This document shows positions 18,840-33,899 of a DNA stretch of 64,000 nucleotides, one piece after another. Under the pieces are notes generated by a model that made no database searches, was not told where the DNA came from, and was given only the letters and a program-made list of their open reading frames with translations. Position numbers and translations under genes: made by a program. Numbering within the stretch: the stretch's first letter is position 1; each line of letters starts with the position of its first letter. The stretch comes from Candidatus Thorarchaeota archaeon (GTDB lineage: Archaea > Asgardarchaeota > Thorarchaeia > Thorarchaeales > Thorarchaeaceae), in contig JBHLRS010000012.1 in NCBI GenBank assembly GCA_048882325.1, forward strand, positions 1 to 64,000, in the 5' to 3' direction.

Positions 18840-20024
18840 ATGGCAGAAGTTCTCACCAAACCTTCCAGACGTATTAGGAATATGGTAATGAAGGAACTTC
18901 GATTGATAATCAAAGACAAAGTTGCGCTCCTGCTGATCTTCCTACTCCCTGCTGCACTTATTGGGATGCTTTGGTATGTGACTGATGCCAGTAGTATGGG
19001 TGGAATGGATATTGGCGGCGGGGGTGGTTTCGGTGGAGGAGATACTGGTGATAATGGAACATCTACAGAGAACCAAGTTCGTATTGGAGTTGTGGATTTA
19101 GACACAACTAGCGGGTACTATGGGCAGGAAGACCTCTCAGAAAACTTGACTGCATTCTTCGATGAGTTGGCAAACGTGACTCTGTTCAACAGCTCAGCAG
19201 ACGCATACAGAGCTCTGTATGACCAACAGATTGACGCATATATTGTGATTCCAGATGGTTTTGAATACAACCTTACAGAGAATGAACCAACCTATATCGA
19301 AGTCCATTATGATGGTAATGACCTGTTTGGGTCTGCATCCGTTCAGGGAATAATTCAAGCAGGTACCATATTCTTCAGAGCATCAAAGCTGTGGATACGT
19401 TCAGAGGTGTTTCCAGGTTTGATTATTGAGTTCACTCCAGAAGGGGGATATCTAGAAAGTGTGTTTGGGGGGTTCATTGTCATTTTCTCCAGTTATCTCG
19501 GAATCGCTATGACCTCAGCCCAGTCGATTGTAGGTGATACACCTCTGAGAAGGATGCTACTGACTCCGACCAATAGGTTAGAGGTGGTTGTAGCAAAGGT
19601 CTTCGGCTATGTGATAATCGGATTCTTTCAGTCACTACTGCTGGTGACTCTGTGGGTATTGGCTTTCGATCTCAATCTCAATACGAGTTTCTTCTCTCTT
19701 GTTGTGATCATGATGTTTAGTTCACTCACAGGATCAGCCACAGGCATTCTGATATCAGCTGTAGCAGGCACAAGACTACAGGCAAATCAGATGTTCCTCT
19801 TCGTTATGTTCGGAACCCTGATTCTGTCAGGTTTCTTCATTAATGTAGGGATATTAGATAGGATTCTGCCTATGAACCAAAGTCTTAACCTACTGGTTGA
19901 CACAGCATTCAAAGGACTCACGCTTTTGGATGTAATTGATAGAGTTCTTGCGCTACTTAGCTTCTCAGTGATAGCAATCTTAGCTGCCACAATCATATTC
20001 TCAAGGAAACCAACACTTGGGTAG
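18840..20024 (+). CDS. ABC-2 type transporter permease
   Basis: KELRLIIKDK; N-terminal TM; extracellular domain (IGVVDLD...AYIVIPDGF); RRMLLTPTNRLEVVVAK; five further TMs. Confidence 0.92.
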   Translation: MAEVLTKPSRRIRNMVMKELRLIIKDKVALLLIFLLPAALIGMLWYVTDASSMGGMDIGGGGGFGGGDTGDNGTSTENQVRIGVVDLDTTSGYYGQEDLSENLTAFFDELANVTLFNSSADAYRALYDQQIDAYIVIPDGFEYNLTENEPTYIEVHYDGNDLFGSASVQGIIQAGTIFFRASKLWIRSEVFPGLIIEFTPEGGYLESVFGGFIVIFSSYLGIAMTSAQSIVGDTPLRRMLLTPTNRLEVVVAKVFGYVIIGFFQSLLLVTLWVLAFDLNLNTSFFSLVVIMMFSSLTGSATGILISAVAGTRLQANQMFLFVMFGTLILSGFFINVGILDRILPMNQSLNLLVDTAFKGLTLLDVIDRVLALLSFSVIAILAATIIFSRKPTLG

Positions 20025-20035
20025 GTGAAGAAAAA

Positions 20036-33000: not shown

Positions 33001-33899
33001 TGACTGACTATGAAGAAGTAACCGTCTATGAAACGAATCCAAATGAGGTTGACACCGACTCTGATCAAATCAGTGATTACGATGAGGTCTTTGGCAACAA
33101 CCCGCTGAGTGTCCCGACAGACCCACTTGAGGCTGATGGAGACTTTGATGGTTTGGATGACTACGAAGAACTTTTCACTTACGGTTCAAACCCCACTCTT
33201 GTTGACAGCGATCAGGACTCCTTGACCGACTTCATGGAGGTCACTGAATACCACACTTTACCAATGAATAATGACACCGATTCCGATCTCTTATCTGATG
33301 GTGCTGAAGTGAACGTTTATGGAACAGATCCCACAAATCCTGACAGCGACGGAGACTCACTCAGTGACTATAGAGAGGTCGTGGTGCTTGGTACTGACCC
33401 GAACCACAGAGACAGTGACCGAGACGGGATTTTGGATGGCCAGGACCTCCTCCCGAATGTCCACTGGATATTCCCGATATCAGCCATCTTTGCTCTGGCC
33501 TTTGTGTTGGCTGTGGTTGTGAGGCGAGTCAGAGAGAGATATCTTGTGGAGGAGTTCGTCACCAAAGCAGAACCCGCGAGCTTGGGCTTGGAGCCGGGCA
33601 TGGACATCGCTGTGGAGTACAAGATACGGGAAGGTAAGGTCATCTTTGGCGTGGTGGTGCGGAACGGTGCTGACAACCCGATGCAGAACGTGCAGGTGAT
33701 ACTGGGAGTGCCAGACCTGACTGACGCCATCAAGACAGAGAACCTCGGTACAGTGGAACCAGACACGGTTTCAGTGGCGGAAATCGAGTTCGAGCTGCAG
33801 CCTGGTGCTGAAGGCGAGCTGGTCGGCATGATTGAGTACGACAGTGTCGACGGTGAGCACAAGGTCGTGAACCTGAAGCCAGTCAAGATTGTAGCATGA
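27081..33899 (+). CDS. Giant surface protein: FG-GAP/VCBS beta-propeller, TSP3-like Ca-binding repeats, TM, cytoplasmic Ig-like domain
   Basis: Signal peptide; seven blades of the type xGDxDxDxxxExxxG; about 1700 aa of D[ST]DxDxLxDxxE...TDP repeats; TM WIFPISAIFALAFVLAVVV then RRVRER; ATGA overlap with the upstream ATPase stop. Confidence 0.9.
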   Translation: MKTHHVIIALLAVCILAGLQLQTSDTGIQPVAITSPMVQQNPHTVAEIAPFDTAIVWSTTTGNQIIDVVVDNFDADARDEVAVITQNGTLFMFDDNSSLLWKLDLGSTPHALTSFDGTAATGQEMLIGTDYGVLVIGANKAVQMNMSLPEPVYAVAGGNFDADGLEEIAVGCDDFYVYAFEINTTQLWSYLSNGKVRLIAGADIDSDARTEIAVASEGRRFTLLQDTGTMVFEKTSATAIRVVAMGDITAAANWEVLYGNTNGTLRVWYDTGTLVYNIQLRDSITALAVGDLVTGGRQEFAVGTAGNQLRIYDSSGILSWNKTLTGQPNSIQFSNIGATTNSQVLVGIPNTLRLYNSTGWLTSSVDAAGFTGALSYGDLDSFGGEEYVFGTNGGLVSAYGRDFDGEGLADAREILMENTLYDNPDTDADNLNDAEEVLDYGTNPLEPDSDFDKLSDFAEVRTYGTDPNEPDSDSDKLTDWQEIYLGTDPNARDSDSDQLTDYEENNVTLTDPLDEDTNNNGINDAQDDNDGDLLTNLQEVRITLTDPNDVDSDNDSISDYYDDQDSDNLANWKEIQVGSDVWDPDTDSDLLLDGEEVKIYKTSPLNEDTDSDQLTDYEEVMIVGSDPLSEDGDNDGLSDYDEYVVYGTDVMNPDTDSDTLKDGREVNVWFTDPLNNDTDSDLISDGLEVKVWGSDPNSADTDLDLLNDYLECYVWHTNVTNADTDSDSLGDGLEVLTYGTNATLVDSDFDTIRDPDEVKYLSSGWDPTNAHTFDAVLNDGEWDWDGDSLTNYDEIYLTRTSPILTDTDGDLITDDLEDSDLDGLTNYDELYVTFSLPRNPDSDDDKVKDGDEWYLLGTDVNDEDSDDNGISDYDEDFDGDNLSNGVELYITFTLHDDSDSDNDFISDYYDDEDADLLPNWFEVEMTGTDPVYNDTNDNGVFDWEEDPDGDELNNLAELNNNCDPLVADTDQDLLTDGEEVLHTHTDPTDSDDDDDGILDGNDDQDNDGLTNLEELRTYGTNVTLWDTDSDMIRDGLEIDVGLNATNPDSDSDSIYDGWNDIIPNGIYEPQFGERGEDVNANGVVNVGETSPFEADSDFDGLDDAEEYLYGTNPLDDDSDDDLLLDGEEINEYGTDPLNDDSDSDLLSDYIEVELTLTDPNNMWFNGTHTDYMIDSDGDLLTNGDEIDIYDTNPGDFDSDNDNIGDGMEVLVYFSDPNSNDTDGDRLLDNEELFYGTGINTQDTDGDQLDDYVEIEYLGTDPLLPSTYMNGTLDGDLDHDGDGLSDAVEIYGYHSNATLADTDQDMLEDGFEVFVSGTSPTDQDTDDDQLSDYDEWMIYHTDPTGSDSDSDQLDDYFEVYVSLTSPTLWDSDGDTLADGFEWNNGTNPNSVDSDNDLLNDNIELDIGTDPNLNDTDSDSLSDWEEWVLYGTDPLEADVDQDGLNDSEELENGTDWENWDSDFDTISDGDEVNIYGTSPINDDTDSDNLADADELFNSHTDPLLVDTDGDTIPDDLDDQDADGLTNADEIYLYETNCTSIDTDSDFISDFDEIFVWDTSPKLFDSDEDGLGDWDELFYWFSDPNLRDTDGDLLEDAEEALTWHTWLNSTDTDMDNVSDYDEIKVFETDALHWDTDSDSVSDGDELYVYNTSPLREDTDSDLLLDGQEINGFFMTFNISGVVESRWVYTNPRAKDTDQDTLSDFEEVNMTGTDPTLFSTQGTTISDADWDIDNDMLTNAQEIRLTRTDPRVFDSDSDGKSDGADDEDRDLLTNYWECVLTETDPRDPDSNDNGVSDYNDDEDGDTLTNGEECAIYGTDPRDRDTDQDQLDDNEEIDDWGTDPLNKDSDFDGLEDGPEVHEWGTMPDSNDTDLDWLTDYEEVVLTGTDPTKPITYGTTYDRWYDSDDDGISNWEELRVYFTLPNDPDFDNDDLLDGLEITLGTDINGTDTDFDLLTDGQEYLLYGTNPLEPDSDFDQLTDYEEVTVYETNPNEVDTDSDQISDYDEVFGNNPLSVPTDPLEADGDFDGLDDYEELFTYGSNPTLVDSDQDSLTDFMEVTEYHTLPMNNDTDSDLLSDGAEVNVYGTDPTNPDSDGDSLSDYREVVVLGTDPNHRDSDRDGILDGQDLLPNVHWIFPISAIFALAFVLAVVVRRVRERYLVEEFVTKAEPASLGLEPGMDIAVEYKIREGKVIFGVVVRNGADNPMQNVQVILGVPDLTDAIKTENLGTVEPDTVSVAEIEFELQPGAEGELVGMIEYDSVDGEHKVVNLKPVKIVA
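28285..33450 (+). repeat. Intragenic tandem TSP3-like Asp-rich repeats (about 23 aa, roughly 70 copies)
   Basis: Recurrent DTDSDxLSDxEEV..YGTDP units, diverged at DNA level; copy number is an estimate. Confidence 0.85.

Follow-up and report, generated by a model that had tools for sequence, protein, structure and literature searches.

A four-gene ABC-2 transporter and pseudo-subtilase core in Asgard archaea, tentatively read as an exporter with a GIFT-fold accessory subunit

The genome of an uncultured Asgard archaeon, a Thorarchaeota metagenome-assembled genome, contains an operon in which five open reading frames (ORFs), all on the plus strand, fill positions 18840-33899 of the 64-kb stretch of DNA analyzed here, referred to below as the window (Table 1; all positions without a locus label are those of the window). 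The operon encodes an ABC-2 permease of the ATP-binding cassette (ABC) class (P0001), two ABC ATPases (P0002 and P0004, here ATPase 1 and ATPase 2), a large pseudo-subtilase carrying a GIFT domain (P0003) and a giant surface protein (P0005). The permease, the two ATPases and the pseudo-subtilase constitute a core that is also found beyond the Thorarchaeia. We tentatively read this conserved unit, known from its genes and predicted folds, as a four-part ABC-2 exporter with a GIFT accessory subunit, and we put that reading at slightly under an even chance. We would class the system, apparently undescribed so far, as an Asgard form of the "ABC-2 transporter plus GIFT auxiliary protein" kind; the initial annotation of this DNA did not recognize it as a described system, and our search of the literature found no published description either.

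One indication that the core acts together comes from its distribution. As markers we took the N-terminal domain of ATPase 1 and the part of P0003 outside the protease, and we looked for both in 251 Asgard genomes that were at least 80% complete and sorted into families labeled f1, f2 and so on. Each was present in 90 genomes; 86 genomes carried both, 8 carried one alone and 157 carried neither, counts in which related genomes are not independent. In one of the 8 single-marker genomes, a contig end accounts for the missing marker, and the others have weak or partial matches. The positives for each marker lie in f1 (63/65 each), f2 (1/1), f7 (4/4), f12 (12/14) and f19 (6/6), and the negatives for both include f5 (0/26), f22 (0/18) and nearly all of f9. 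A profile of the P0003 middle region added f23 (4/4) and genus g40 of f9 at strong E-values, together with a few weak matches elsewhere; in these two lineages, linkage to the ABC genes was inspected at one locus each. The initial annotation had named conservation of the five-gene block as a check on its reading. Within Thorarchaeia the block is conserved: the five-gene order is kept in 8 further Thorarchaeota loci and in one genome of a second family belonging to the same order, at 34-62% identity, far beyond chance adjacency. Beyond Thorarchaeia, what is kept, in at least six further Asgard families, is the four-gene core without the adhesin P0005.

The arrangement of the core varies. Hermodarchaeum-type genomes (f12) have the same order, followed by a gene for a Ras-family GTPase. 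In the Jord/Freyarchaeota type (f19), the genes run ATPase 1, permease, ATPase 2, divergent from the pseudo-subtilase gene and 66 bp from it. A closed genome labeled Lokiarchaeota (f23) has ATPase 2, two permease paralogues and ATPase 1, then a pseudo-subtilase of 1762 aa, whereas genus g40 of f9 has two permeases, ATPase 1 and a pseudo-subtilase of 1620 aa, with ATPase 2 divergent. In f7, the ABC trio and the pseudo-subtilase gene occupy separate loci of the same genome. A permease orthologue is adjacent in all linked loci. In the Loki-type variants (L108:4350-15092, plus strand, and L109:9172-19213), we also observed that the two permease paralogues match the two different ATPases, alongside the longer pseudo-subtilase of 1620-1762 aa. 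That the same four families recur in five different gene arrangements speaks well for one functional unit. The opposite reading, in which an ordinary ABC-2 efflux pump for a drug, ion or lipid happens to stand beside a decayed surface protease and an S-layer-like adhesin with which it has nothing to do, can point to the fact that each gene type is common alone, to the separate loci of f7, and to the many other S8 and GIFT proteins that this genome encodes away from ABC genes. However, it has to account for four families found together in five arrangements with an almost perfect phyletic match, and for a dead protease domain that is strongly conserved and not decaying. We consider it very improbable.

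As its name implies, the pseudo-subtilase P0003 is predicted to have lost the activity of its S8 domain. Thr stands in the position of Ser221, and Asp in that of the oxyanion Asn. Indeed, a census of 129 homologues (120 database proteins, 8 proteins from fetched loci and P0003 itself) found the nucleophile Ser replaced in 122, by Thr in 60, Ala in 56, Phe in 3, Leu in 2 and Gly in 1, with Ser in the other 7, and the Asn155-equivalent was Asp in 129/129. Asp32 and His64 are mostly kept, each being lost in a few homologues. On the evidence of these residues, the domain should be catalytically dead, as the initial annotation had claimed. Even so, an alignment of six orthologues shows many columns without variation in the S8 domain and also in the cytoplasmic tail of about 77 aa, which is conserved across families. 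The strong conservation of a dead S8 domain argues for a maintained binding module and against a decaying gene. The domain is closest to that of Tk-SP (3afg), not to that of site-1 protease (S1P), and P0003 has weak NCBIfam matches to the CspC and CspBA pseudoprotease models (E ~3e-7), far under the cut-off.

Toward the membrane, P0003 carries a second recognizable module. Two Pfam models match it just past their cut-offs: IFT52_GIFT (PF23355) with 28.5 bits against 27.2, and DUF4350 (PF14258) with 30.7 against 30.4. An AlphaFold2 (AF2) model of residues 975-1385, made from a 16-sequence alignment (mean predicted local distance difference test score, pLDDT, 74.6), comprises an alpha/beta domain, a beta-sandwich and a transmembrane (TM) helix. 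The top Foldseek matches of this model are OST48/Wbp1 of the human and yeast oligosaccharyltransferase (OST), over ~390-408 columns with E 2.9e-13, followed by the GIFT domains of IFT52. In VIA-align comparisons, IFT52 gave Z 23.0 (root-mean-square deviation [rmsd] 2.0 Å, 192 aa, 19% identity), and OST48 gave Z 18.5-19.2 over 321-327 residues that take in both domains and the TM helix; the OST48/WBP1 chains 6s7t_G, 6s7o_G, 6ezn_G, 7oci_G and 6c26_B spanned Z 16.2-19.2 over 321-328 aa. S1P residues 616-874 gave Z 17.7-17.9 (rmsd 2.8-3.1), and generic GATase1-like folds gave Z of at most 15. A sequence profile of the module run against the PDB found IFT52 (E 8.6e-13) and S1P (E 0.03); the same profile did not find OST48 there, even at E 10, and the OST48 Pfam models had no match at E 0.01 in P0003 or its orthologues. 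The MBTPS1_4th model reached at most 25.6 bits in orthologues, against a cut-off of 27, and did not match P0003. Judged from the predicted structure, the membrane-proximal part of P0003 has the fold of IFT52, OST48 and S1P, and the GIFT fold that the initial annotation had assigned to this protein is present.

In the transporter part of the core, the permease has 6 TM segments, with an extracytoplasmic loop of ~155 aa between TM1 and TM2 (residues 47-204, nucleotides [nt] 18978-19451). In both ATPases, the Walker A motif, Q-loop, LSGG signature, Walker B motif with catalytic Glu, and H-loop are all present. Those of ATPase 1 (Walker A GESGAGKST, signature LSGGQQRR, Walker B/Glu LLMDEP and H-loop THY) show no variation among 12 orthologues, and the Walker A, signature, Walker B and H-loop motifs of ATPase 2 are invariant in 10; by these motifs, both enzymes should be catalytically competent. 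Each contains a nucleotide-binding domain (NBD) and a DrrA-type C-terminal domain, and the drrA subfamily model scored 180.5 bits on P0004 and 175 bits on P0002, both under its cut-off of 312. ATPase 2 and the NBD of ATPase 1 share ~33% identity, so the two are distinct NBDs, which we take to form a heterodimer. A complex prediction of ATPase 1, ATPase 2 and the P0003 cytoplasmic tail with custom alignments scored 0.02 against a mark of 0.32, a result with no bearing either way. ATPase 2 is without the N-terminal extension of ATPase 1, which is where the Pfam model Regulator_TrmB matches: 33.6-37.1 bits against a cut-off of 22.2 (E 2.5e-9), in two stretches at profile positions 162-231 of 233. 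The same model matches the Jord and f7 orthologues of ATPase 1.

These parts suggest how the exporter might work. An ABC-2 permease of the type-V, DrrAB/ABCG-like kind would be powered by the two different ATPases, and P0003 would dock on it through the TM helix and the membrane-proximal GIFT/beta-sandwich module. GldG presumably pairs with GldF in such a manner, and OST48 is placed likewise inside the OST complex. The inactivated protease cleft, held above the membrane, would then serve as a binding site, not a cutting site, and ATP hydrolysis by the NBD heterodimer would move an amphipathic envelope component, most likely a lipid- or glycan-linked molecule, from the membrane or cytoplasm to the ectodomain. 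A ligand bound at the two TrmB-like barrels of ATPase 1, perhaps a sugar, may control this hydrolysis, much as the regulatory beta-domains of MalK and Wzt gate their transporters. ABC-2/type-V exporters typically move lipids, lipid-linked glycans and hydrophobic compounds (DrrAB, Wzm-Wzt, TarGH, NodIJ, ABCA/G). Our leading guess for the cargo is possibly a glycoconjugate, on thin evidence: P0003 shares its fold with an OST scaffold subunit, the ATPase 1 NBD is joined to barrels akin to the part of TrmB that we take, from the T. litoralis structure, to bind sugar, and a neighboring protein, P0127, has six-hairpin-glycosidase look-alikes, which count as a lead only.

Several observations weigh against an exporter of this kind. 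The TrmB link is a Pfam match to the last third of the model; phmmer and profile searches of PDB sequences returned nothing significant for it, the profile search giving TrmB itself (2f5t) at only E 0.83, so that sugar binding by ATPase 1 is a guess. It is unusual for a single permease gene to go with two different NBDs, as in Thorarchaeia. The Thr that stands at the nucleophile position in nearly half of the census could in principle keep some chemistry. The ABC genes and the pseudo-subtilase gene are unlinked in f7, and a scan of the neighbors within ±10 kb for glycosylation or lipid genes found none among them.

The dead cleft and the conserved tail might instead belong to a surface receptor, in which a ligand bound in the cleft would be signaled through the helical tail and the ABC proteins would serve as a regulated output or take part in the sensing, as in BceAB-type systems. 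In Clostridioides, bile acids are sensed by a pseudoprotease, CspC, which sets a precedent. The conservation of the ~77-aa tail across families would suit such a role, as would neighbors of a signaling or trafficking character, namely the Ras-family GTPase of Hermodarchaeum-type loci and the TPR and MIT-domain proteins of Jord and f7 loci, and the weak CspC/CspBA matches point the same way. However, these neighbors differ between lineages, the CspC likeness amounts to generic S8 similarity, and no kinase, transcription factor or other classical signaling output is conserved with the core. On balance, we judge a receptor to be quite improbable and retain the exporter as the preferred reading.

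Comparison with known systems places the core near, but outside, several of them. The initial annotation called it GldAFG-like, and in composition this is apt: as with GldA, GldF and GldG, an ABC ATPase, an ABC-2 permease and a membrane-anchored extracytoplasmic GIFT protein are encoded together. Membership in that family is another matter. The GldA equivalog TIGR03522, with a cut-off of 402.6, scored 135.0 bits on P0004 and 98.3 bits on P0002, and neither GldF nor GldG models were among the NCBIfam matches at E 0.01 for P0001 or P0003. Moreover, the present system has two different NBDs, one with TrmB-like barrels; P0003 is a single-pass type I protein, 3-4x larger than GldG and with a dead subtilase head; and the host is an archaeon without an outer membrane. 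GldAFG is genetically tied to gliding, although we know of no established function for GldAFG itself. The same composition is seen in the bacterial "ABC-type uncharacterized transport system" with a GldG-like auxiliary component (ABC_transp_aux, PF09822, cut-off 34.7). Here the f7 orthologues of P0003 pass the cut-off with 36.6 and 36.8 bits, the Jord and Hermod orthologues score 25.6-26.3 bits, and P0003 itself falls under it with 20.6. Among exporters, both NBDs match best to DrrA, including its C-terminal domain, and the permease is ABC-2, as in the type-V systems DrrAB, Wzm-Wzt, TarGH and NodIJ. ATPase 1 also resembles Wzt in carrying an extra putative ligand-binding beta-domain on the NBD, here N-terminal and TrmB-like. 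Unlike DrrAB-type exporters, the Asgard system would have heterodimeric NBDs and has a giant accessory subunit.

The GIFT module has three eukaryotic counterparts. OST48/WBP1 is matched over its full length by the last 400 aa of P0003, both having a GIFT domain, a second beta domain and a C-terminal TM, and the topology also agrees, with an ectodomain that is outside or lumenal and a short cytosolic tail. In contrast, the rmsd is ~18 Å with different domain orientations, the P0003 module stands behind ~980 aa of pseudo-protease, and the gene neighbors of P0003 are ABC genes, not STT3/AglB. WBP1 homologues have been reported only in Heimdallarchaeia and Njordarchaeales (Eme et al. 2023, PMC10307638), a range unlike that of the P0003 family, which is found in Thor-, Hermod-, Jord- and Loki-type lineages. 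A 2026 preprint reports an OST48 structural cluster in Asgard and does not mention subtilases or GIFT, and our literature search found no paper that links GIFT domains with Asgard archaea. S1P (MBTPS1/SKI-1; 8UW8, 9CSD) shares with P0003 the order of a propeptide-like N terminus, S8, GATase-like/GIFT domain, TM and cytoplasmic tail. However, S1P is active, whereas P0003 has replaced nucleophile and oxyanion residues and an extra middle region of ~500 aa, and the sequence link is marginal (the profile E of 0.03 and an MBTPS1_4th score under the Pfam cut-off). IFT52 offers the best single-domain match of P0003, in fold and in sequence profile, through its N-terminal GIFT domain. Unlike IFT52, a soluble cytoplasmic member of intraflagellar transport (IFT) complex B, P0003 has its GIFT domain outside the cytoplasm and tethered to the membrane, and no other IFT component is involved.

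Two relatives of P0003 elsewhere in the same genome, outside the window, deserve separate mention. P0126, an active paralogue of 983 aa (L099:7215-10166, plus strand, contig C14), has a Tk-SP-type propeptide, an S8 domain with an intact D/H/N/S set, a GIFT-like domain, a beta-sandwich, a TM and a short tail. In size and in the order of these domains it agrees with eukaryotic S1P; two more large S8 proteins flank it and no ABC genes adjoin it. It is a better S1P look-alike than P0003, although a sequence search with its non-catalytic half gave no S1P match. A protein of 407 aa (L100:5105-6328, minus strand, contig C6) carries an IFT52-type GIFT domain from residue 19, and with 52.3 bits (E 5e-14) it is the best GIFT match of the genome; its size is near that of IFT52 or OST48.

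The giant protein P0005 stands apart from the core. The initial annotation had described it as integrin-like, which is accurate only at the level of a generic N-terminal propeller. The integrin-type models stay under their cut-offs on this propeller (FG-GAP 12.7, FG-GAP_3 15.7 and Itfg2 20.2 bits), and the best Pfam models are BBSome-type ones, all past cut-off: BBS2_Mid with 40.1 bits, PHTB1_N (BBS9) with 37.8 and Beta-prop_BBS7 with 35.9. Given the outside topology, the BBSome likeness is probably generic fold similarity. We also entertained a proto-IFT/BBSome reading, built on the BBSome-type propeller, the GIFT domain and a possible ear-like domain, and rejected it; the propeller and the GIFT domain are both extracytoplasmic. 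The ear-like domain in question is the cytoplasmic beta-sandwich of P0005. It has no Pfam match, and an exhaustive HMMER search against 1.8 billion representatives returned 8 clusters, mostly orthologue fragments, among which two repetitive SpaA-like/low-complexity proteins look incidental. In a fold search, a COPI leaf chain (9qpq_H) ranked third (E 7.6e-5, TMq 0.64); ApaG, POLDIP2, transglutaminase and TRAP beta-sandwiches scored similarly, and these are generic matches only. Language-model look-alikes of the tail include adaptin/COPI appendage clusters (0.84-0.89), again a lead only. Between propeller and tail, the long Asp-rich stalk of thrombospondin type-3 (TSP3) repeats scored 299.7 bits in 14 stretches with the NCBIfam model gliding_CglD (NF033765), against a cut-off of 400; this score comes from generic TSP3 repeats. 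P0005 does resemble CglD of Myxococcus, a Ca-dependent gliding adhesin, in being a large surface protein with a long run of Asp-rich, TSP3-type Ca-binding repeats. Unlike CglD, it is archaeal and TM-anchored, not a lipoprotein, it adds a propeller at the N terminus and a beta-sandwich in the cytoplasm, and no VWA domain was detected in it. A literature search combining Asgard with thrombospondin or integrin returned only irrelevant papers.

This protein is central to the reading of the initial annotation, a mechanotransducer and not a transporter, in which ATP-driven movement of the permease would be transmitted to the two large single-pass proteins, their cytoplasmic tails touching the ATPases, and would so modulate adhesion or surface movement of P0005, as a gliding or focal-adhesion-like device. 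The tie of GldAFG to gliding belongs here, as does the adhesin itself: its gene is translationally coupled to that of ATPase 2 by an ATGA overlap kept throughout Thorarchaeia, its cytoplasmic beta-sandwich is folded in the model (pLDDT 81), and its stalk brings the score against the model of a myxobacterial gliding adhesin. CglD is characterized as an integrin-like traction adhesin in a preprint (bioRxiv 10.1101/2023.10.19.562135). However, the CglD match is under cut-off and, as noted, generic, and no motility apparatus genes are present among the neighbors scanned. Moreover, ABC-2/type-V permeases are known to export lipids, glycans and drugs, and the mechanotransmitters MacB, LolCDE and FtsEX have another permease fold. 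Distribution also counts against it. A marker made of the P0005 TM and cytoplasmic domain was found in 54/65 genomes of f1 and 1/1 of f2, that is, in Thorarchaeia, with weak matches elsewhere to ~790-aa proteins of f9 and to one protein in f6. By this marker and by locus inspection, the adhesin was not found in the lineages f7, f12, f19, f23 and f9-g40, which keep the core, and no P0005 relative occurs at the inspected loci of other Asgard families with the four-gene core. The engine therefore cannot have evolved for the adhesin, and the adhesin is not part of the conserved unit in which the initial annotation had placed it. A mechanotransmission or adhesion model may hold for Thorarchaeia and leaves unexplained a core that also occurs without the adhesin; as an account of the system, we regard it as unlikely. 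For the exporter, P0005 is probably a Thorarchaeia-only add-on, a lineage-specific client or partner and not an engine part, and Thorarchaeia would have added this giant Ca-binding propeller and stalk protein to the operon.

The layout of the operon itself is as the initial annotation had it: the five gene identities hold in the Pfam domain calls and hydropathy scan, and the junctions, read in the DNA, have the gaps of 11, 4 and 1 bp and the ATGA overlap. The permease TAG is followed by 11 bp and an ATG, and the TGA of ATPase 1 by 4 bp and the ATG at 21720. Between P0003 and P0004, a TGA and 1 bp precede the GTG at 26086, an alternative GTG at 26077 giving an 8-bp overlap, and the ATGA overlap of P0004 and P0005 lies at 27081-27084. 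Sequencing runs listed for 19500-28500 included no RNA, only DNA from sediment metagenomes that may be its source. The signal peptide and TM claimed for the adhesin and the cytoplasmic tails claimed for both large proteins were also recovered by the hydropathy scan, which gives P0003 and P0005 a type-I topology with an N-terminal signal/anchor, one C-terminal TM and tails of ~77 and ~125 aa, respectively.

Table 1. Positions in the 64-kb window of the five operon genes, their predicted domains and the divergent neighbor P0127
Feature	Position (nt)	Strand	Basis
ABC-2 permease P0001, 394 aa	18840-20024	+	Pfam ABC2_membrane_3 108.2 bits, ABC2_membrane 52.8 bits
ATPase 1 P0002, 559 aa	20036-21715	+	Pfam Regulator_TrmB and ABC_tran
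ATPase 1 N-terminal domain, ~245 aa, two TrmB C-terminal-like beta-barrel repeats, cytoplasmic	20036-20770	+	Pfam Regulator_TrmB
ATPase 1 NBD and DrrA-type C-terminal domain	20771-21715	+	ABC_tran 96 bits; drrA subfamily 175 bits
Pseudo-subtilase-GIFT protein P0003, 1459 aa (TTG 21705; ATG starts 21720, 21741; 1454 aa from 21720)	21705-26084	+	Pfam, AF2 model
P0003 S8 domain, predicted dead	22212-23051	+	Pfam Peptidase_S8 116.6 bits
P0003 family-specific middle region	23142-24629	+	
P0003 GIFT domain	24651-25427	+	Pfam, AF2 model, fold matches
P0003 beta-sandwich	25428-25736	+	AF2 model
P0003 TM	25767-25823	+	Hydropathy scan
P0003 conserved helical cytoplasmic tail	25851-26081	+	Tail conservation
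ATPase 2 P0004, 335 aa (GTG 26077) or 332 aa (GTG 26086)	to 27084	+	ABC_tran 90 bits
Giant type-I surface protein P0005, 2272 aa	27081-33899	+	Pfam propeller matches, composition, TM
P0005 beta-propeller	~27237-28280	+	Pfam
P0005 stalk, ~1700 aa, 23% Asp, TSP3-like Ca-binding repeats	28338-33446	+	Composition; TSP3_bac weak
P0005 TM	33465-33521	+	Hydropathy scan
P0005 cytoplasmic 7-strand beta-sandwich	33600-33896	+	AF2 model, pLDDT 81.4
P0127, 769-aa cytoplasmic protein, divergent neighbor	16300-18609	-	Homologues 31-70% identity, same position, loci L017-L021

Around the operon, P0127 is conserved as a neighbor within Thorarchaeota only and may be a candidate for functional association. It has no Pfam match, and its language-model look-alikes include a cluster of rhamnosidase/trehalase-type six-hairpin glycosidases (0.97). 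Convergent to the end of the operon is the gene for a 362-aa membrane protein without a Pfam match (33942-35030, minus strand), found at the same position in two related Thorarchaeota loci (L015 and L018). Beyond it, a radical SAM enzyme and a flavodoxin are encoded head to head at 35148-37012, apparently unrelated to the operon, and a TPR gene lies at 15575-16261. The neighbors within ±10 kb include a fumarate-reductase-like flavoprotein, TPR proteins, the radical SAM enzyme, the flavodoxin, a YhhN protein and a GNAT protein. In Hermodarchaeum-type loci, the gene directly after ATPase 2 encodes a Ras-family GTPase of 174 aa (Ras model 173 bits; L026:15372-15896, plus strand, and also L012 and L025), which occupies the place that the giant adhesin gene has in Thorarchaeia; an aminotransferase gene is next. 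In f7 and Jord-type genomes, a convergent set beside the pseudo-subtilase gene encodes a TPR protein, a protein of ~135 aa and a protein of ~1050-1094 aa with a weak MIT match (L013:8623-13226 and L097:13899-19015, both minus strand, and L098:5266-6225), homologous between f7 and Jord at 28-41% identity.

Eukaryotes have their nearest prokaryotic relatives in the Asgard archaea, whose ways of building and using a cell surface are poorly known. The core described here is a conserved membrane machine, apparently Asgard-wide and without a described counterpart, and its accessory subunit shares fold and topology with eukaryotic secretory and ciliary proteins, OST48, S1P and IFT52. One could go further and propose that Asgard proteins combining S8, GIFT, beta-sandwich and TM, in dead and active forms, were the stock from which eukaryotic OST48/WBP1 and S1P, and perhaps the IFT52 GIFT domain, were drawn, so that a module of the endoplasmic reticulum and Golgi would have begun as a subunit of an ABC-2 glycoconjugate exporter; we think this rather unlikely as it stands. 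If the cargo is a glycoconjugate, ABC-2 export would be linked to the ancestry of the eukaryotic N-glycosylation scaffold, and if the giant Ca-binding protein is what the system drives, archaea would have a new kind of adhesion device. In both cases, the core provides a defined four-protein target for expression, structural work and cryo-electron tomography in cultured Asgard relatives.

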